Below the pieces are notes generated by a model, which ran no database searches, was not told where the DNA came from, and saw nothing but the letters and a program-made list of their open reading frames with translations. The translations under genes and the position numbers were made by a program. Below are positions 18,795 through 52,317 of a stretch of 64,000 nt of DNA, piece by piece (position 1 is the first letter of the stretch; every line of letters begins with the position of its first letter). This stretch comes from an uncultured Gammaproteobacteria bacterium (GTDB lineage: Bacteria; Patescibacteriota; Microgenomatia; Levybacterales; UBA12049). Where the stretch lies: NCBI GenBank assembly GCA_964474445.1, contig CAYYSJ010000006.1, positions 14,213 to 78,212 on the forward strand, given 5' to 3'.

Positions 18795-18866
18795 ATATAT
18801 ATTTTTGTAGTTGTAGTAGTGTATCTGGAAATGTGGAAAAAAGCAAGAAGATAGCTTCAAAAATCC

Positions 18867-18945
18867 TGTGGATAACGTGTTGAAAACTTTTGGGATAACA
18901 TGTTGAAAAGATATTTTTTCTCAACTTTCCCTCTTATTATCCACG
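18867..18945. promoter_or_regulatory. DnaA boxes in the dnaA-dnaN intergenic region
   Basis: TGTGGATAA at 18867-18875 and TTATCCACG at 18937-18945. Confidence 0.5.
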
Positions 18946-20289
18946 CATCATTTTAGTTATCCCCATGATTTCCTCAGACAATATTTTGTTTTGTGTGGCT
19001 AAATCCTCCATCTTTTCCACACCATACATCACTGTTGTATGGTCTCTTCCCCCCAAGATATTTCCTATTTCAACATACGTTAATCCCAACTCTTTCTTTA
19101 AAAGAAACATTGTTACCTGTCGTGCTTTAACGAGGGAGGCATCTCTCTTCGGTCCCTTTAATTGGGTTGATTTGATTTTGTAAAAATTGCAGGTTGTTTC
19201 AATAACATCTTCTGCATGGAGGATATGATTCTCCCTATTCTCTCTCCCATTCCCTAATGCTTTTTCTGCGAGGTCCTCGGTTATTTCCGCTCCTCCTGTT
19301 GCTGCAGCTTGGGTAACAACTCGAAGCAACGCTCCTTCAAGGCTTCTGACGTCTTGTTCTTTTTCTGCAATTTTTTTGGCTATTTCAATAGAAAGGTTAT
19401 ATCCGAATTTCTCTGCCTTTTTCAAAACGATTGCTGTCCGAAGCTCAAAATCAGGTGCTTCAACATCAACGGTTAATCCACCTGCAAAGCGAGAGGAAAG
19501 TCTTGCCTCAAGTTTTTTAATCTCACTTGGCGGCCTATCAGAGGACAAAACAATTTGGGCGCCGCCATCAATGAGTGAGTTAAAAGTATGGAAAAGTTCT
19601 TCTTGAACCCTGTCTTTCCCTGCGATAAATTGCACATCGTCAATAATAAGTAAGTTTGCTGAACGGAATTTTTTCTTCATACGAGCAGTATCATTACTTC
19701 GAATAGCCTCAACAACTTCATTCGTAAATTCTTCAGAGGTGATATAAATAATTTTGTTATTAGGATCTTGGGAGTACACCTCATTTGCAATAGCTTGCAT
19801 TAAATGGGTTTTCCCTACTCCCACAGGACCATATATAAACAGAGGATTGTAAGATCGTCCAGGCGTTTTTGCAACATTCCGTGCTGATTCAAAGGCAAGC
19901 CTATTGGAATCAGAGACAGCAAGTGATTCGAAGGTATAATCAGGTCTTACTCGTGGAAGATGGCCAATGGGCATTTTAGGTCTAGTGTCTGTTGCAAAAA
20001 GCGGTGCTTCCTTGTCTTCTCTCTCTGTATGGTTCTGCACACTCTTGGCAACAAAGAGAATATCAGTGTCTTGCTTAGTGTGTTTTTCTAGAGCAGTCTT
20101 AATAGTATCCTTAAACCGTTTTTGGAGAAGGTCAATAACCATTGTGGATGGTGCAGCAATGGTTGCAATATTGTCTTCGAGTGATAATAATGCGGTATTT
20201 TTAAAGAGTGTGAGGAAGTTCGCTCGAGAAACCTCTATTTCTATATCTGAGAGAATATCTTTCCAAAGTTTTTCTGTCTTATCATTCAT
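18937..20289 (-). CDS. dnaA: Chromosomal replication initiator protein DnaA
   Basis: Walker A GPVGVGKTHLMQAIANE, Walker B LLIIDDVQFIAGK, C-terminal DNA-binding DHTTVMYGVEKM. Confidence 0.95.
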   Translation of the reverse strand: MNDKTEKLWKDILSDIEIEVSRANFLTLFKNTALLSLEDNIATIAAPSTMVIDLLQKRFKDTIKTALEKHTKQDTDILFVAKSVQNHTEREDKEAPLFATDTRPKMPIGHLPRVRPDYTFESLAVSDSNRLAFESARNVAKTPGRSYNPLFIYGPVGVGKTHLMQAIANEVYSQDPNNKIIYITSEEFTNEVVEAIRSNDTARMKKKFRSANLLIIDDVQFIAGKDRVQEELFHTFNSLIDGGAQIVLSSDRPPSEIKKLEARLSSRFAGGLTVDVEAPDFELRTAIVLKKAEKFGYNLSIEIAKKIAEKEQDVRSLEGALLRVVTQAAATGGAEITEDLAEKALGNGRENRENHILHAEDVIETTCNFYKIKSTQLKGPKRDASLVKARQVTMFLLKKELGLTYVEIGNILGGRDHTTVMYGVEKMEDLATQNKILSEEIMGITKMMRG

Positions 20290-20308
20290 TGTATGAGCAC
20301 TTTATCAA

Positions 20309-20382
20309 TGTGGATAACTTTTTGTCAAGAGGAATAAAGGTGATTGTTTCAAGAGCTGCACCAGAAAGCCAAATGTGGACAA
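20309..20382. promoter_or_regulatory. DnaA boxes / candidate oriC segment between divergent dnaA and rpmH
   Basis: TGTGGATAA at 20309-20317 (perfect reverse-complement of TTATCCACA) and TGTGGACAA at 20374-20382. Confidence 0.5.
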
Positions 20383-20413
20383 TCAAAAGTATTTTTGTTA
20401 TACTGGTGAGGAT

Positions 20414-20551
20414 ATGAAAAAAGGTCCAGCAATTGCAAAAAAAACAAAAGGTCAAAGAAAACATGGATTTTTAGCTCGAATGGATTCTCATGGAGGACGA
20501 AAAGTTCTTAAGAGAAGACGAGCCGAAGGAAGAGAATCCTTAACAAAATAG
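20414..20551 (+). CDS. rpmH: 50S ribosomal protein L34
   Basis: MKKGPAIAKKTKGQRKHGFLARMDSHGGRKVLKRRRAEGRESLTK; 45 aa, below the ORF-track cutoff; canonical position upstream of rnpA. Confidence 0.85.
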   Translation: MKKGPAIAKKTKGQRKHGFLARMDSHGGRKVLKRRRAEGRESLTK

Positions 20552-20635
20552 TAGTAAGAAGGCTGTATTTTTTAGAAAAAGAAGTCTTTTCTGCAAATCT
20601 TCTTTAATTTGCTACCTTTCCTCCTTTAACAAACT

Positions 20636-20956
20636 ATGTTAGCACGACAATTCCGTTTACCAGCAACTGTTTCATTTCAAAAAGCAAATGTGTTTCATTC
20701 TGCATATTTTACAGTAAGAGTTCTTTCCAACACCCTTTTTCATAATAGATATGCCTTTATTGCAGGAAAAAAACTAGACAAACGAGCTGTTGTGCGCAAT
20801 AAGGTAAAAAGAAGAGTAAGAGCTGTTGTAGAAAAAGAGGGGTTACTCCTGAAGGGGAAAGATGTTCTTTTCCTGTTAAAGCCTTCGACAAAAGATGCAA
20901 CACATGACCAACTTGCTGAAGCAGTCCGTGGTATACTGGAAAAACTGAAGAGCTAG
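20636..20956 (+). CDS. rnpA: Ribonuclease P protein component
   Basis: Basic RnpA pattern ...FIAGKKLDKRAVVRNKVKRRVRAVV; gene order rpmH-rnpA. Confidence 0.85.
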   Translation: MLARQFRLPATVSFQKANVFHSAYFTVRVLSNTLFHNRYAFIAGKKLDKRAVVRNKVKRRVRAVVEKEGLLLKGKDVLFLLKPSTKDATHDQLAEAVRGILEKLKS

Positions 20957-20970
20957 CTGCCCCTTTATCT

Positions 20971-21201
20971 ATGAAATATGTATTGGTAGTACTATTAAAA
21001 TTCTACAAATGGATTCTCTCTCCCCTTCTCCATCAGGTACTTGGGGTAAAGCATGCATGTCGCTACTCGCCAACGTGTAGTGAGTTTGCTATAATACACA
21101 TTAAGAAAGACGGAATATTAAAAGGAGGAATAAAGGCAATACTTAGAGTATTGTACTGCCAGCCCTTTGTTGAATCCCTTCCCTACTCTCTTCGAAAATA
21201 A
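20971..21201 (+). CDS. yidD: Membrane protein insertion efficiency factor YidD
   Basis: LLKFYKWILSPLL...CRYSPTCSEFAI. Confidence 0.85.
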   Translation: MKYVLVVLLKFYKWILSPLLHQVLGVKHACRYSPTCSEFAIIHIKKDGILKGGIKAILRVLYCQPFVESLPYSLRK

Positions 21202-38273: not shown

Positions 38274-38753
38274 ATGCGTATTCTTGGTATTGATCCTGGT
38301 ATTGGAAGAATGGGATGGGGAATTATAGAAAAGATGCACGGAGCATCGTTTACCGTTCATGGGTACGGATGTGTGGAGACAGAACCTAATTCCGATGTTC
38401 CAGGACGATTATACGCAATTTATGATGAAGTCTGTCGGATAATTGATGAATATCAACCCGAAACGTTAGCTATTGAGGATTTGTTTTTTGCTAAAAATGT
38501 TAAAACAGCATTTACTGTCGGACAAGCACGAGGTGTTATTCTCCTTGCTGCATCACAAAAAAACCTTAATGTTGTTGTCTACACACCATTGCAAGTAAAA
38601 AGTGCTATCACAGGATATGGGAAGGCTGAGAAAAAGCAGGTTGGGCAAATGGTCAAGGTTCTTCTTCACTTGAAAGAAATTCCCAAACCTGATGATACAG
38701 CTGATGCATTGGCAATTGCATTAACCTATGCTGTCATGCAGAAATATGCATAA
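38274..38753 (+). CDS. ruvC: Holliday junction resolvase RuvC
   Basis: MRILGIDPGIGRMGWGIIE ... catalytic D/E pattern; 159 aa. Confidence 0.85.
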   Translation: MRILGIDPGIGRMGWGIIEKMHGASFTVHGYGCVETEPNSDVPGRLYAIYDEVCRIIDEYQPETLAIEDLFFAKNVKTAFTVGQARGVILLAASQKNLNVVVYTPLQVKSAITGYGKAEKKQVGQMVKVLLHLKEIPKPDDTADALAIALTYAVMQKYA

Positions 38754-39291
38754 CATCGTTATTACTATTGGTTTTTGTCTTTTAGTGATACGAAGCGTGT
38801 ACTGGGTCTATGCAGTATGGGAAAAAGGAAATCCAGGAGGGAACGTGTTGGTAGGACAGTTAGGCGAACTTTTCCTTCTCCTTTTTCTTTTTACGCAGGT
38901 GAGCGGTCTTCGTGTCCTGCCAATGCCTTTTTCTCCCGTAACATTCTGGATAGGTTTTCTCTTCACGGTTGGAGGTGCTGGGATGAGTTTTATGGGCAAG
39001 GGGCAATTGGGGAGTAGTTGGCACTATGCAGGGGGCGTGAAAGAGACAAAAAAGCTTGTGATAACAGGACTGTACAAATACGTTCGTCATCCAATTTATG
39101 GAGGATATATTCTCTCATTTGTGGGAATTGAGTTGCTTCTCGGAAGCTACTTATGGGTTTCTTTCTTGGGGCTTTTTATTCCATTCTTATTGCAAATTCA
39201 CAAGGAAGAAGTATCTTTGGAAAAACGATTTGGGATTTTGTATAAGGAATATAAAAGAAAAACAAAATCTGTTATTCCATTTATTTGGTAA
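38728..39291 (+). CDS. Isoprenylcysteine carboxyl methyltransferase (ICMT/PEMT) family membrane methyltransferase
   Basis: GLYKYVRHPIYGGYILSFVG matches the RHPxY-hydrophobic-E family motif; 4-5 TM helices; overlaps the ruvC 3-prime end, start uncertain. Confidence 0.6.
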   Translation: MLSCRNMHNIVITIGFCLLVIRSVYWVYAVWEKGNPGGNVLVGQLGELFLLLFLFTQVSGLRVLPMPFSPVTFWIGFLFTVGGAGMSFMGKGQLGSSWHYAGGVKETKKLVITGLYKYVRHPIYGGYILSFVGIELLLGSYLWVSFLGLFIPFLLQIHKEEVSLEKRFGILYKEYKRKTKSVIPFIW

Positions 39292-39935: not shown

Positions 39936-40958
39936 ATGAATAATGGTAAAGATGAATTTTTAGAGAGTTCTCCTGAAGAGGAAAAGCTGTTCACTAATTT
40001 GCGGGCAAGCGATTGGTCTGAGTTCTATGGACAAGATACTGTTAAGGAAGCATTACAAATTGCTATTGCTGCAGCCAAAAAACGAGAAGAGGCTCTTGAG
40101 CACGTTCTTCTCTATGGTCCTCCTGGTCTTGGAAAAACAACGCTTTCTCATTTAATAACAAAAGAAATGGGAGCTCATATACGAATTACGTCTGGTCCGG
40201 CAATTGAACGGGCTGGAGATTTAGCGTCAATTCTTACAAATTTAGAAAAAGGGGATATTCTTTTTATTGATGAAATTCATCGACTAAACAAAGTTGTGGA
40301 AGAAATTTTATATCCCGCAATGGAGGATTATGCATTGGATATTGTCATAGGAAAAGGTCCAGCTGCACGGACTATCCGGCTTGACTTACAACCTTTTACA
40401 ATAATCGGGGCAACAACGAAAGTAGGAAGTTTATCTGCACCACTTCGAGATAGGTTTGGGCATATTCATCGGCTTGATTTTTATGCGCCAGAACAACTAG
40501 AAAAAATTATAGCGAAAGCTGCAGAGAAAATGACAATTGAGATAGATGCGGAAAGTGTGTTGGAAATTGCTCGTAGGTCGCGAGGAACGCCTCGTATTGC
40601 ATTGAAATTGCTCAAACGCGCACGGGATTTTGCACAAGTAAAAGGGAAGGGTCGTGTTGTACCGTCTCTAACGCATGAAGTAATGGCGATGTTGGAGATA
40701 GATGATGTAGGACTCGATAAATCAGATATCCGCTTTCTTAGGGCCATTGTAGAGCACCACAATGGGGGTCCAGTAGGCGTTGAAACATTGGCGGCAACAC
40801 TCTCAGAAGATGCGAATACCATTGAGGAAGTTATTGAACCATTCTTATTACAACGTGGGCTATTGAAAAAAACGGCACGGGGTCGTATTGCAACAGAACT
40901 TGCTTACAAACACTTAGGGAAAGCGTTTGATAAAGAAAAACAAGGACAACTACTGTAA
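39936..40958 (+). CDS. ruvB: Holliday junction branch migration helicase RuvB
   Basis: Walker A LLYGPPGLGKTTLSHLI, Walker B ILFIDEIHRL, sensor SRGTPRIA. Confidence 0.9.
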   Translation: MNNGKDEFLESSPEEEKLFTNLRASDWSEFYGQDTVKEALQIAIAAAKKREEALEHVLLYGPPGLGKTTLSHLITKEMGAHIRITSGPAIERAGDLASILTNLEKGDILFIDEIHRLNKVVEEILYPAMEDYALDIVIGKGPAARTIRLDLQPFTIIGATTKVGSLSAPLRDRFGHIHRLDFYAPEQLEKIIAKAAEKMTIEIDAESVLEIARRSRGTPRIALKLLKRARDFAQVKGKGRVVPSLTHEVMAMLEIDDVGLDKSDIRFLRAIVEHHNGGPVGVETLAATLSEDANTIEEVIEPFLLQRGLLKKTARGRIATELAYKHLGKAFDKEKQGQLL

Positions 40959-40983
40959 CCTCATCAACTGTATAAACATTTCT

Positions 40984-41624
40984 GTGGATATCTGTTCTAT
41001 CCAACAATATCTCTGAAAGCTTTTTGTTATATCTGGTAACTCAATAGATTCTTTCGTCAAGCATGGACGTTATCCCCAAGATATCCACATGATACGTATT
41101 CTCTAGAGCAAGAATATGGACTTTACAAGAAAGGTAATCAATTCATAAGATTTGTGAAAGAACTGTCTGTCAATGGTTGCAGTAATGACCCCACAACTGT
41201 TTAAGAAAATTCTGGAAGTTTATTGAGAAACAAAGCTCTCCTATGAGCTAAAGCCGTTTCTTCTGGGTTGGAGTATGTTTCAATATCCATAAGATGTTGA
41301 AATGGGGAGTTTTTTCCCCTTAACCATCAGAATTGAGGCTAGAGATACTAGATGTGTTGGTAGTTTTGCATACCTGGAAAAAGGTTAATGTTTAAAGAAC
41401 TGCAACGTTGTTTGTGCAACTCATTTTGGAGAACTTTTAAAAATGAGAGTATGAGAGAAGGCTATTGGAGTTCCTAACGTTCTTTTTATTTTTTCCGATT
41501 TTGTCTAGTTTCCTGTCATAATCAAAGTAAACAATGATAAAGAATAGAACAATTGGATTGTAAGGGAAAGACGTTATTGGTTTTTGTATTTCCCTCCACA
41601 TAGAATATCCACAAGTTATCCACA
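40984..41624. promoter_or_regulatory. Cluster of five or more DnaA-box-like 9-mers in an 890-bp non-coding gap
   Basis: TGTGGATAT 40984-40992; TTATCCCCA 41070-41078; ATATCCACA 41081-41089; ATATCCACA 41605-41613; perfect TTATCCACA 41616-41624; AT-rich surroundings; no credible ORF. Confidence 0.5.
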
Positions 41625-41848
41625 GGAAAAAAGTAAATCTTTTTTATGAAAAATCTCCGCCGCATTTTTGAGAGCAAAAAAGCTTTTGTAGTATATCTTA
41701 AAATACATGTGTAAAAACCTGTATATGCTTAAAAAGCACACTGCATTACGAAGGCTGTATTACAGAATTTTTATGATTTTCTTTCAATGTGTCAATATAA
41801 ATCTTACGTTCTTCTTGCACAGCATTTATAGCATAAGTATTACTGCCT

Positions 41849-43009
41849 ATGTCTCAACAATCCCAAAATTATCTTTTGAAAAAAATTTCTAAGGCAGCTC
41901 TCCAGTTTTCAATACAGCTCACTCCAGATGAAACCTACAATACCATTATTTCCGAAGCTCTTTCTCTTGCAAAAGGAGATGAAGGAGTGGTTATTCTACA
42001 TAAACAAGACCATTTAGAACCTGTGTACACCAAGCCTGCAAGTAGTATGCGAGTAGAACCTCGGAAAGAAGGATTTGCATATAAAGCTTTAGAAACAGGA
42101 AAAGCATTCCTTGTGCATGATACAATTTTTGGAGAAATCCACCCCGAACTTGCAGCAAAAATAAAAAGCTCATTGTTTATTCCTCTTTCTTATGAATCAA
42201 CGCACATTGGGGTATTAGTGATTCGTTTTTATAAACACAAGAATCTTTCTCAGGAAGTATTAGATGCGTTAAATCTTTTTGGTTCAATAGCAAGCATGAA
42301 TATCCATAAAATGCAGTTGTATTCTGATTCTCAAAAAGCACTTATGATGAGAGATCTTTTTATTGCTCTCGCATCTCATGAGTTAAAGACTCCTTTAACA
42401 ACAATGACAATGTATGTGCAGCTATTTGAGTCACGTTTACAAATGGGAAGACCTCTCGAAGAAAAGTGGGTCAAAAACCTTTCTATGGAAACGACAAGAT
42501 TAGCTCATCTTGTCAATGAGCTTTTACAGCTGGATCAAATTGAGAAAGGGCACCTTCATTTTACACCCAAAACATGCAGCCTTAAAAGCATTATTGAGCG
42601 TGCAATAAATGATTTTCGACTTCTCCATTCAGAATATACGGTCTCTTTACTAGACAATACACATGGAAAAGATATGTTGGAATGCGATTATGACAAAATG
42701 CTACAAGTAGTTATCAATCTTTTAAATAATGCAGCAAAGTTCTCAGACCATCACAAGGAAATTCAGTTAAGCCTTGTTAGGAAAAAAAAGATGCTCTGTC
42801 TTCGTATTAAAGATAAAGGACAAGGCATTGCAACACGTGATTTACCAAAAGTCTTTGATCAATTTTATAAAGGGACTTCTCATAAAAAGGATGGGATGGG
42901 ACTGGGGCTTTTTCTGACAAAAAACATTATAGAAAATCACGGAGGGCAAATTTCTATTCACTCAGAACTGCATAAAGGAACTGCAGTGGAGGTACAACTA
43001 CCTATATGA
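41849..43009 (+). CDS. Sensor histidine kinase (GAF-like N-terminus, HisKA, HATPase_c)
   Basis: H-box ALASHELKTPLTTM; N-box LNNAAKFSD; G-boxes DKGQGIA and GMGLGLFLTKNIIENHGG. Confidence 0.8.
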   Translation: MSQQSQNYLLKKISKAALQFSIQLTPDETYNTIISEALSLAKGDEGVVILHKQDHLEPVYTKPASSMRVEPRKEGFAYKALETGKAFLVHDTIFGEIHPELAAKIKSSLFIPLSYESTHIGVLVIRFYKHKNLSQEVLDALNLFGSIASMNIHKMQLYSDSQKALMMRDLFIALASHELKTPLTTMTMYVQLFESRLQMGRPLEEKWVKNLSMETTRLAHLVNELLQLDQIEKGHLHFTPKTCSLKSIIERAINDFRLLHSEYTVSLLDNTHGKDMLECDYDKMLQVVINLLNNAAKFSDHHKEIQLSLVRKKKMLCLRIKDKGQGIATRDLPKVFDQFYKGTSHKKDGMGLGLFLTKNIIENHGGQISIHSELHKGTAVEVQLPI

Positions 43010-49697: not shown

Positions 49698-49769
49698 TCC
49701 GCGATAGCTCAATGGTAGAGCAGGTCGCTGTTAACGACAAGGTTCTAGGTTCGAGTCCTAGTCGCGGAG
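49698..49769 (+). tRNA. tRNA-Asn, anticodon GTT
   Basis: Manual fold: acceptor TCCGCGA/TCGCGGA, D-arm GCTC-AATGGTA-GAGC, anticodon stem GGTCG/CGACA with loop CTGTTAA, T-arm CTAGG-TTCGAGT-CCTAG, discriminator G. Confidence 0.85.
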
Positions 49770-49833
49770 CAGAAATCGTCCTATAGCCATGTCCTAATGG
49801 GACAGCTTAAATTCTTTCTGTTACACTAATTAC

Positions 49834-50682
49834 GTGTTAATTATTTATTCATTCATTGCTCTGTTCGTATTGTTCCAAACTCTTAGTAGTGCATTATCCA
49901 GTTGGGTGACAAAAAAGACTCGGTATGAGGGGGCATATACCGTTCTTTGGCAACTTACTAGTGGAGGTCTTATGTTTTTTACTTTGCCTTTTGTTAAGCT
50001 TTATACAAATTTTGATGTAAAAATCCTTTTAATTTTTGCAATATCTCTTATTTTTTGGGCGTTAACAAATGTTTTCCTCTTTAAAGCTTATAAAAATGAG
50101 GATGTAAGCATAATAACAACTGTATATCCTCTTTATAATATTATCGCCTTCGGTGTTACTGCATTATTTTTTGGTGCTAAATTTAATTTGGTAATAGTAC
50201 TTGGATTTTTACTTATCACCTTTGCCAGTTTTTTGACTGGTTTTTATAGAACTAAATTTAATCCATCAAAAGGCGTAAGATTTATCCTTTTAAGTGTTCT
50301 TTGCGAAGGAATTGCACTTGGACTTAGTATTCCAGTAACAAAAGTTTACTCAAGCTTTCTGTATATTGCAGTTGGTTTTACTGTGCCTGGACTTATAAAT
50401 CTATTTCTTTTTATCCGTCCAAAAATATCACACCTTGCATATGAATTAAGTAGACAATGGAAAGCAATTTTTATTAATGCAATATGCGTTGATTTGCTTT
50501 ATATATTCGAATATGCAGCACTTCAAAGAGGAAATGTCTCACAGGTTGTTTCGTTTGGTGAAGCTTCTACATTATTAACTGTTATATCAGGTATAGTGTT
50601 TTTACACGAAAGAAAGCATATAGCTATCAAGCTAACAGCGGCAATAATAGTAATAGTTGGAATTATTTTAGCTCAGCAGTAG
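49834..50682 (+). CDS. DMT/EamA-like transporter family membrane protein (about 10 TM helices)
   Basis: Two internally similar five-helix halves; GTG start. Confidence 0.45.
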   Translation: MLIIYSFIALFVLFQTLSSALSSWVTKKTRYEGAYTVLWQLTSGGLMFFTLPFVKLYTNFDVKILLIFAISLIFWALTNVFLFKAYKNEDVSIITTVYPLYNIIAFGVTALFFGAKFNLVIVLGFLLITFASFLTGFYRTKFNPSKGVRFILLSVLCEGIALGLSIPVTKVYSSFLYIAVGFTVPGLINLFLFIRPKISHLAYELSRQWKAIFINAICVDLLYIFEYAALQRGNVSQVVSFGEASTLLTVISGIVFLHERKHIAIKLTAAIIVIVGIILAQQ

Positions 50683-50688
50683 GAAGCT

Positions 50689-50853
50689 TTAGATATCCTT
50701 TTCAATGTTTTTAATAATTTGCTCTAAGTCTTCAATTACCATTTGAAAATGTTCCATTTCTGCTTTTTTATGTGATTTCTTGAGCATTTTCAATACATCA
50801 ATTGCCTTAAGAATGTCTTTTATAATTTGATGCTTTGCATTTTCATCAGTCAT
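50689..50853 (-). CDS. Small hypothetical protein (54 aa), charged and helical
   Basis: ATG-initiated ORF MTDENAKHQIIKDILKAIDVLKMLKKSHKKAEMEHFQMVIEDLEQIIKNIEKDI, below track cutoff; no homology recognised. Confidence 0.25.
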   Translation of the reverse strand: MTDENAKHQIIKDILKAIDVLKMLKKSHKKAEMEHFQMVIEDLEQIIKNIEKDI

Positions 50854-51274
50854 GCTTGTAGTTTATCACCTATCTATTTGACTTAACAAGTATTGTGTTT
50901 GTTCAAAGATAATCTTTGGATATTCAACTTCCGCCAGTCTTCCGTAGAAATTGTCCCACTGGGCGAGCAGAAAAACACCGTTTCAGAACGAGTATCTCGT
51001 TAGCTTCAAAAGGTAGATAAAAGAATTTGGATGAGTAACCGAATGTTGGAGTGATGAAGTTCCTTTAAGACCATTTAAATGGTCTTGCACAATTAGTGAA
51101 CATTTAGAGTCTTCTCTTTAAAAATATCCATTGAACTACAAATCTGCATATTTGAATGATTCAAACCCTTTCATACTTTTTGTAAATTGTGATACGTCAA
51201 AAATTTTTATTAGACAAGATAGTAATTGCGTCACAAAAAGTTCTTTCTCCCGTTTTATATAAGTAGATAAAGAT

Positions 51275-51685
51275 ATGCCATCACTCATTCTTCTTATTGC
51301 ATTCGGACTTGGAATTGCATTTTTTGCAACGCAGAACACTGGAGCTGTTCATATCGTTTTGGGCAATTATGTTTTAACGAATATTCCACTTTATACGATC
51401 GTTGTTGGATCAATTCTTTTCGGCGTTTTTGTTAGCTGGCTAGTTAATATTGTGGATACACTTTTCACTCTTTTTACATTGCGCAATAAAGATAGTCTGT
51501 TAAAAAAATCTCAACATACCATGGAAAAATTGCAAGAAAAAAATTTTGAACTTGAAAAAGAGATAGCGCAACTTAAAGAAAATACAAATGTCCCAGATCA
51601 AGAAGACAGTGAGAAAAAAGATGTAAATTATGAACCAGAACTGCTTAAAAGTTTCAAACATGGATTAAACCTGTCTCAGCAATAA
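51275..51685 (+). CDS. LapA-domain (DUF1049)-like membrane protein with C-terminal coiled coil
   Basis: MPSLILLIAFGLGIAFFATQNTGAVHIVLGNYVLTNIPLYTIVVGSILFGVFVSWLV, then E/K-rich helix. Confidence 0.4.
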   Translation: MPSLILLIAFGLGIAFFATQNTGAVHIVLGNYVLTNIPLYTIVVGSILFGVFVSWLVNIVDTLFTLFTLRNKDSLLKKSQHTMEKLQEKNFELEKEIAQLKENTNVPDQEDSEKKDVNYEPELLKSFKHGLNLSQQ

Positions 51686-51963
51686 TAACGATGAATATAA
51701 AAGGGGGAATGTATATGGCAACAATATTGTATATTTTGCTCGTTTTTTTTACTCCTATGCAATTCAACTTTTTTTGGTTTTTTGTCAGTGTGCTTTTTTC
51801 TCTTGTTGAAACAGGCGGAAGAATCATTTACCGATATACAACAGATAAGTCATTGGCAGGACATATGGAGGAATTATAAAGTAGGTTTTTTCCTAATTTG
51901 ATTAGGAAAAAAGGACATTTTTAATATAATTCATTGGCAAACAGTGTTTGCTATACTGGGAAT

Positions 51964-52253
51964 ATGAAATCGGTAAATTGTGTCGATACATACATTGAGA
52001 ATGTCCAAAAGAAGTACAAGGGAGACTTCGAGAGATTCGGTAAGCAATCAAATCAGTTGCTCCAGATACTGAAGAAACGATAAGTTATGGAATGCCCTAT
52101 TATCATTACAAGGGACGACTTGCTTATTTTGCAGTCTTTAAAAACCATATAAGTCTTTTTGCAATTCCCCCAATTGTAGAAGAACACAAAAGTGAACTAG
52201 TAAAATATAAAATCAACAATTCAATTCCCTTTAGATCAAAAACTTTCTATTAA
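51964..52253 (+). pseudogene. DUF1801 (YdhG-like) gene disrupted by a frameshift
   Basis: Frame 1 MKSVNCVDTYIENVQKKYKGDFERFGKQ... stops at 52081-52083; a second frame continues IKSVAPDTEETISYGMPYYHYKGRLAYFAVFKNHISLFAIPP... to the stop at 52251-52253; shift near 52041-52050. Confidence 0.55.
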
Positions 52254-52317
52254 TTTGATAAAAAAGCTGGTGAAAGCACAGATTAAAAAAATTGAAGAAG
52301 GACAAAAGAGAAAATAA

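Follow-up and report, generated by a model that had tools for sequence, protein, structure and literature searches.

The 890-bp gap at positions 40959-41848 of the 64,000-nt stretch of contig CAYYSJ010000006.1 analyzed here (hereafter, the window), located between ruvB and a histidine kinase gene, is almost certainly the decayed remnant of a comM/yifB gene (encoding a Mg-chelatase-like AAA+ ATPase) on the minus strand. Two short sites within this relic, denoted A and B, consist of tandem DnaA boxes, and comparison with the intact orthologs suggests that site A and the strong box of site B are probably constrained as DNA, in the live genes as well as in the relic. On balance, we favor the interpretation of these sites as a DnaA-box cluster of the same kind as the DnaA-box clusters (DBCs) of Bacillus subtilis and datA of Escherichia coli, proximal to the origin of replication (oriC), that would have arisen inside a coding sequence and outlived the gene. 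The window, with a GC content of 38%, belongs to a genome of the candidate phyla radiation (CPR)/Patescibacteria that is close to Candidatus Levybacteria; the best matches of its RuvB protein among species-representative genomes come from Levybacteria metagenome-assembled genomes (66-71% identity).

A tblastn search of the 64-kb window with the intact ComM protein from the related locus L088 yielded four collinear minus-strand segments with internal stops (sum E = 4e-18), which correspond to ComM amino acids 149-165 (41647-41597), 170-262 (41586-41323), 286-358 (41278-41069) and 369-394 (41040-40963). The relic (40963-41647, minus strand), identified by tblastn, by a match to the Pfam family PF01078 and by its orthologous position, spans ComM residues ~149-394 of 508, with the N-terminal ~148 and the C-terminal ~114 codons gone, and its reading frame is broken by in-frame stops, frame changes and small indels. 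The motifs ALAHRRALFLNKLPEF, CGYLGDN, RYNKKLSEILLDRTDIH and FPVDNLWIFYV are still readable, and the stitched translation matches PF01078 (Mg_chelatase) with a score of 34.4 bits (cut-off 20.3; E = 1.9e-8). Of the bases invariant among live comM genes, the relic keeps fractions of 0.60, 0.66 and 0.73 at codon positions 1, 2 and 3, respectively, and such equal loss over the three positions fits the neutral decay of a dead gene. Given the stops in all frames, the four frame-shifted segments and the partial residue span, the remnant is a pseudogene rather than a functional gene; the pseudogene itself is ordinary. The description of the gap in the initial annotation as gene-free, with no credible open reading frame (ORF), holds insofar as stops interrupt all six frames but overlooks the comM pseudogene. 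The length of the gap, initially described as exceptional for this gene-dense window, is confirmed in that the 890 bp constitute the longest stretch of the window without a credible ORF, whereas the region is AT-rich only mildly (GC content of 0.337, compared to 0.382 for the window).

Exact-protein look-ups of RuvB and the kinase returned only short contigs that are 100% identical to the window and carry no comparative information. Relatives identified through RuvB (best identity of ~70%) show no gap after ruvB; in several of these, ruvB is followed by an ATPase gene and a 510-aa minus-strand gene that was later shown to be comM. Close relatives, with 71-78% kinase identity, were found by searching with the GAF histidine kinase, and the related loci that were compared are L086, L088, L090, L171-L175, L176, L007, L005 and L008. 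Five genes lie between ruvB and the kinase gene in L088, namely, those for a P-type ATPase (minus strand), the 508-aa ComM/YifB (minus strand), an MBOAT family protein, a hypothetical protein and PurF. The equivalent interval in L086 (78% kinase identity) is a 1237-bp gap that holds a frameshifted, less decayed comM fragment at the same place. The gene order ruvC-ICMT-ruvA-ruvB ... comM ... purB-purA-dnaG-rpoD is found in L086, L088 and L171-L175. Beyond L086 and L088, seven loci of the clade have comM adjacent to purA/purB-dnaG-rpoD, with ruvCAB also present on the other side in all of these except L176 (6 of 7). The relic in the window thus occupies the orthologous position. Contrary to the expectation that this region would not be protein-coding in relatives, the homologous DNA in nine lineages lies within an intact comM. 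On one side of the relic, the P-type ATPase gene and the 3' end of comM were lost by deletion; on its other side, the 5' end of comM was deleted together with the MBOAT, hypothetical and purF genes. Close relatives still have the P-type ATPase, MBOAT, hypothetical and purF genes.

The interval between comM and ruvB varies among the relatives (L173, 11636-13968; L088, 1905-4259; L175, 9067-10216) and contains either a P-type ATPase gene, or a RelB/YafQ toxin-antitoxin module with a PRiA4_ORF3 gene, or small hypothetical genes, and so looks like a local hotspot of gene turnover. The comM relics of L086 (8764-10000) and of the window (40959-41848) seem to have the same right-hand deletion junction. 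Of the ancestrally invariant bases, 87% are kept in the L086 relic and 65% in the relic of the window, with the flanking live genes about equally diverged; this difference in decay could reflect unequal neutral rates, independent events or a late loss of function in L086.

The whole window was scanned on both strands for the DnaA-box motif TTATCCACA with at most one mismatch, and the result was compared with shuffled sequence. Exactly five such 9-mers, where at least five had been reported, occur in the gap, among them the perfect TTATCCACA at 41616-41624, with ATATCCACA located 2 bp upstream. All five boxes are relic codons of the ComM motifs CGYLGDN, PVDNL and DIH, and the intact L088 gene carries the same 9-mers at the same codons, with the exception of the inner box of site B. 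Site A (41069-41091) is a tandem pair with an 11-bp period that consists of TTATCCCCA (41070-41078, plus strand), AG and ATATCCACA (41081-41089, plus strand). This pair, the 20-mer TGTGGATATCTTGGGGATAA, is part of the reverse complement of TGT GGA TAT CTT GGG GAT AAC, which encodes C-G-Y-L-G-D-N of ComM, and a 23-nt block at site A is shared without any difference by the L088 gene and the relics of L086 and the window. Site B (41605-41631) comprises ATATCCACA (41605-41613, plus strand), AG, the perfect TTATCCACA (41616-41624, plus strand) and then GGAAAAA; the 20-mer is TGTGGATAACTTGTGGATAT, and the element containing the perfect box is CCTGTGGATAAC. This site is the reverse complement of TTT CCT GTG GAT AAC TTG (F-P-V-D-N-L), and the pair at 41605-41624 is that of GTG GAT AAC TTG TGG ATA T, encoding (P)VDNLWI; a 20-nt block of site B (41612-41631) is an exact match to both L088 and L086. 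The inner box of site B is TGGGGATAT in L088, and a G>T change in the relic reduced the number of mismatches from 2 to 1. The remaining single box, ATATCCACA at 40983-40991 on the minus strand, corresponds to the codons GAT ATC CAC A for D-I-H of the LLDRIDIH motif and is probably a chance by-product: it is present in the L088 gene, but other intact genes deviate from it, either synonymously or in the encoded amino acid (ATC CAT, GTA CAT or TTG CAT), with no synonymous conservation, and the L086 relic has ATACCCACA in this place.

The nine lineages with an intact comM share 64-100% amino acid identity, with 233 alignment columns occupied by identical residues other than Met and Trp. The same codon is used in all nine lineages in 12 of the 233 columns, and half of these 12 form the consecutive C-G-Y-L-G-D of site A, the sole run of codons identical in the nine lineages; 18-21 nt of site A occur in all nine. 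This run includes the rare glycine codon GGG; any other Gly codon would destroy the box. When four intact genes are compared, CGYLGDN (7 codons) and FPVDNL (6 codons) stand out as the longest stretches of identical codons, the next one being 3 codons long; between L088 and L090, with 88% amino acid and 46% synonymous codon identity, the longest such run is VFPVDNLGI. The sequence CCT GTG GAT AAC at site B is the same in L088, L090, L171-L175 and both relics, and is absent in L176, L007, L005 and L008. In this region, the outgroups have YP(V/S/L)xTL, and the subclade has FPVDNL, which encodes the perfect box; accordingly, site B arose within the subclade, with the protein sequence changing toward the DNA motif. 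A metagenome scan with ComM returned only distant homologs (50-59% identity), which were used as a negative control; the 80 distant comM genes, with GC contents of 0.34-0.73, contain 0-2 boxes each, and none of them encodes boxes at the CGY.GD motif. A census of 13 related loci, 276 kb in total, counted 13 perfect TTATCCACA boxes, of which 9 are the site B box of comM and two flank dnaA of the window, and the site B box is the only perfect one in the loci of most relatives. Furthermore, site B and the box in the dnaA-dnaN spacer have the 12-mer CCTGTGGATAAC in common, and the DnaA protein encoded in the window carries the canonical recognition motif GGRDHTTV.

The same two sites stand out in the dead gene. 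The box positions for this comparison were defined independently of the window, as site A together with the strong box of site B, and comprise 29 positions that are invariant in six live comM genes. All 29 are retained in the relic, compared to 213 of the 336 other positions invariant in the six genes (Fisher p = 3.6e-6); when only aligned positions are counted, the comparison is 29/29 versus 213/306 (p = 4.9e-5), and a four-gene version of the test gives p = 6e-6. A block-permutation test of retention carried no information, as the two box sites themselves account for nearly all of the highly invariant blocks. The relic and the L088 gene are 60% identical, and their longest exact matches (23 and 20 nt) coincide with the two box sites, followed by matches of 12, 11, 10 and 10 nt; the length of exact runs is informative only because the relic has diverged to 60% identity.

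Taken as candidate high-affinity DnaA sites located ~21 kb away from dnaA and in the same replichore as their neighbors, site A and the strong box of site B would bind DnaA and, by analogy with the DBCs and datA, would buffer or modulate the availability of the initiator. While comM was alive and oriented head-on, the sites may also have coupled its transcription to DnaA. The proposed role would be independent of ComM, so that the sites could outlive the gene. Judging from the sequence comparisons, we lean slightly toward a function of the box sites as a DnaA-binding cluster. The broader scenario, that in this family-level clade of Levybacteria sites for initiator control evolved inside comM, reshaped its codons and, at site B, its amino acids, and are important enough to persist without a single change after the death of the gene, is put forward more tentatively, at somewhat less than even odds.

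Several observations weigh against this functional interpretation. The boxes coincide with the most conserved peptide motifs of ComM, so that part of their conservation predates the death of the gene, and the second half of site B varies among the live genes. The site A half TTATCCCCA lacks the A that is normally strict at box position 7. In the L086 relic, which is much less decayed (87% retention), the retention test gives only p = 0.02, and exact runs of 15-29 nt are found also between live orthologs of ruvB, the kinase gene and purB (66-77% identity). Both the position of the origin and the background of boxes were judged from the 64-kb window rather than from the whole genome; within the window, boxes are in excess, with 37 compared to 19 +/- 4.3 in shuffled sequence, but the enrichment is modest, and the clustering in the gap is marginal (p = 0.046 for at least five of 37 randomly placed boxes falling in some 890-bp span). 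One alternative is that the boxes are functionless by-products of the codons of conserved motifs in an AT-rich genome and survived by luck or through a mutational quirk. In its favor, besides the marginal clustering, the long exact runs between live orthologs and the variable second half of site B, all five map to ComM motif codons, four of the five are already present in the intact L088 gene, and the D-I-H box shows no synonymous conservation. We nevertheless consider such a purely passive origin unlikely, at about one chance in four, because it leaves unexplained the run of six consecutive identical codons in nine lineages, GGG included, when only 5% of the identical-residue columns share a codon, the appearance of site B through the amino acid changes YPxxTL -> FPVDNL that create a perfect consensus box, the complete retention of the 29 box positions against ~65% elsewhere, and the lack of such boxes in the 80 other comM genes. 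A different possibility is that the 20-mers are constrained for a reason other than DnaA, as the target of another DNA-binding protein, the attachment core of a recombinase or transposon, or an mRNA signal. The constraint is seen statistically, with DnaA as the presumed binding partner; TTATCCCCA makes a poor DnaA box, in other bacteria comM is known as a hotspot of integration, and the ruvB-comM interval in the relatives is variable, with toxin-antitoxin or ATPase genes. However, site B is a perfect consensus box whose extended flanks exactly match those of the dnaA-dnaN spacer box, the variable DNA is located past the comM stop codon rather than at the motifs, and an mRNA signal would not survive the death of the gene, so that this alternative appears quite improbable.

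The initial annotation also raised the possibility that the gap is the true oriC, displaced from dnaA, and this proposal has to be considered against the region around dnaA itself. The dnaA gene (18937-20289, minus strand), which is indeed about 21 kb from the gap, is found in the canonical dnaN-dnaA / rpmH-rnpA-yidD-yidC arrangement and is surrounded by the primary DnaA-box cluster detected by the box scan (18832-20382). Six boxes at 18832-19021, which run from the 3' end of dnaA across the 76-bp spacer into the 5' end of dnaN, make up the densest cluster in the window; the dnaA-dnaN spacer (18861-18936) contains a 23-bp direct repeat, TTTTCAACAYGTTATCCMMA, and two more boxes are located in the 126-bp spacer between dnaA and rpmH. 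The cluster at the dnaA/dnaN junction is the likeliest oriC core. A change-point fit of the strand-corrected GC skew at third codon positions (GC3 skew) places a sign switch inside the window, with the best fit at 27-30 kb (weighted residual of 101, compared to 122 at dnaA, 20 kb, and 150 at the gap, 42 kb), and the GC3 skew of the seven plus-strand genes at 34.7-41 kb (+0.18 to +0.44) resembles that of the genes on the right side of the gap.

An origin with an unwinding element in the gap, or one half of a bipartite origin, would be in line with the five boxes, including two same-orientation pairs with the 11-bp spacing seen in origin arrays, with the gap being the longest non-coding stretch in the window, and with the small size of the spacers that flank dnaA (no more than 76 and 126 bp). 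Next to site B, a permissive pattern of the form box-spacer-(NAN)x4 can also be read by eye under published criteria (PMC8287927). The flank of site B is not conserved, and the reading of this pattern as DnaA-trios was rejected as evidence on account of its permissiveness. Against a displaced origin, there is no GC3-skew switch at the gap, nor does the sign of the skew change across comM or its relic in L086, L088, L171 and L173; a duplex-stability scan of the window places the least stable 80 bp of the gap only within the top ~1%, with at least 15 other places less stable and no outstanding low-stability segment; the sequence adjacent to the boxes is unconserved beyond GGAAAAA; and, since the homologous DNA lies inside an intact gene encoding a conserved protein in nine lineages, the oriC idea fails, leaving it a very small probability. 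The alternative of a structured non-coding RNA gene in the gap, perhaps under the control of DnaA, draws on a single 120-nt segment (41220-41339) that folds with z = -3.9. This hairpin, however, is made of mutated comM codons and is missing from L086. On average, the gap folds with z = -0.47, compared to -0.28 for coding controls, which reach -3.4; no conservation was seen outside the box sites and the kinase leader; and an Rfam search of the gap gave no match at the gathering thresholds, with permissive hits at chance level (E > 2). Accordingly, an RNA gene is the least probable of the explanations considered, and we infer that the locus is neither a replication origin nor an RNA gene.

Several features of the dnaA region were noted in the course of this analysis. 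The boxes of the dnaA/dnaN cluster also extend into coding sequence. The apparent gap at 20290-21200 is filled with rpmH (20416-20551), rnpA (20636-20956) and yidD (20971-21201), ahead of yidC; these genes were absent from the ORF list because they are too short for its 120-aa limit. The best fit of the skew is 8-10 kb to the right of dnaA, and within the region 11000-34000, the plus-strand genes at 22.4-28 kb look as if they belonged to the left replichore; noise, a local inversion or a slightly displaced origin are possible causes of this offset.

The gap is flanked on the left by ruvB (39936-40958, plus strand; Pfam domains RuvB_N, AAA_lid_4 and RuvB_C) and on the right by a gene for a sensor kinase with the GAF-HisKA-HATPase domain architecture (41849-43009, plus strand; Pfam). 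Between the relic and the region upstream of the kinase gene lies decayed DNA (41648-41763) that aligns only with the equivalent part of L086; a protein similarity search with this segment found nothing significant, and a faint trace of the 3' end of purF is detectable at ~41738-41763, in a weak alignment with the purF stop region of L088 and L090. In a four-lineage alignment, the ~85 bp preceding the kinase ATG (41764-41848, plus strand) are conserved in the window, L086, L088 and L090 as a promoter/leader region, and an exact 20-nt block at 41829-41848 is common to the window and L086. The origin of these 85 bp from comM was considered and rejected; this is the ancestral upstream region of the kinase gene, which also follows purF in L088 and L090. 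The invariant GCATAAGTATTACTGC abuts the kinase ATG, leaving little room for a leader or a Shine-Dalgarno sequence, and the kinase mRNA may have no leader or only a very short one. Scans of the gap for tRNA and tmRNA genes detected nothing, and promoter and terminator scans of the gap gave results at chance level. Logan short-read contigs from three samples, 100% identical to the window, end at 41507, 41554 and 41830-41858, that is, inside the gap or at the kinase start, which could be due to low coverage or to strain variation at the relic.

Elsewhere in the window, the longest ruvA ORF (start at 39098) overlaps the ICMT family gene (38728-39291) by ~190 bp; on identical contigs, the ruvA start is called at 39230, and the upstream ATG is probably unused (39098-39291). 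The stretch at 50000-52300, which follows a tRNA-Asn gene (49698-49770), has a GC content of 0.31-0.32 and several gaps of 200-420 bp with only short ORFs, and may represent foreign or decaying DNA.

An apparently empty, box-rich gap near dnaA has thus turned out to be the relic of a gene, which calls for caution in motif-based prediction of origins in streamlined genomes. At the level of sequence, the evidence suggests that DnaA boxes can be embedded in and constrain a coding sequence in the ultra-compact genomes of CPR bacteria and then survive the loss of the gene, and it points to a DnaA-buffering or regulatory function in genetically intractable organisms with uncharacterized replication control. 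If this interpretation is correct, this would be the first case in which an extra-origin locus of DnaA regulation is inferred in CPR bacteria, and a clear example of a cis-element outliving its carrier gene. The two short, defined DNA targets and the cognate DnaA make the idea directly testable in vitro. Our search of the literature on DnaA boxes in comM or on oriC in Patescibacteria found nothing relevant.

The relic resembles known comM/yifB genes in its homology to PF01078, its motifs (LFLDE-like, CGYLGD and LLDRIDIH) and its orthologous position, and differs from them in the destroyed reading frame and the deletion of both ends; the comM genes of this clade, with embedded DnaA boxes, are themselves unlike the 80 other comM genes examined. 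The tandem same-orientation boxes 2 bp apart are also a feature of the basal unwinding system (PMC8287927), but no conserved trios, outstanding AT-rich unwinding element or skew switch was detected at the sites in the window, which are intragenic in the relatives. The E. coli loci DARS1 and DARS2 are likewise short clusters, of three boxes, that act on the nucleotide state of DnaA; the DARS core, however, consists of the oppositely oriented boxes I and II plus box III, whereas the conserved boxes in the window all have the same orientation. As in E. coli datA, which lowers the initiation potential, we are dealing with a non-oriC chromosomal locus with a handful of boxes, some of them closely spaced. 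For the stimulation of DnaA-ATP hydrolysis, datA, which is far from oriC, needs an IHF site and specific boxes. The initial suggestion of a datA/DARS-like locus gains indirect support from the conservation of the boxes at synonymous sites and their selective retention in the relic, but membership in either class cannot be claimed because the box geometry and co-factor sites are not established. The B. subtilis DBCs (Okumura et al. 2012, PMC3245932) share with our candidate sites the small cluster of consensus boxes outside but near oriC. The known DBCs, like datA, are intergenic, and the DBCs contain more boxes, whereas the sites described here, intragenic in the relatives, appear to have arisen in a coding sequence that is now a pseudogene, a difference that also counts against grouping them together. 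Clusters of the DBC type are already known; what would be new here is that sites for the initiator lie inside a coding sequence, limit the choice of its codons and persist after the gene is lost.

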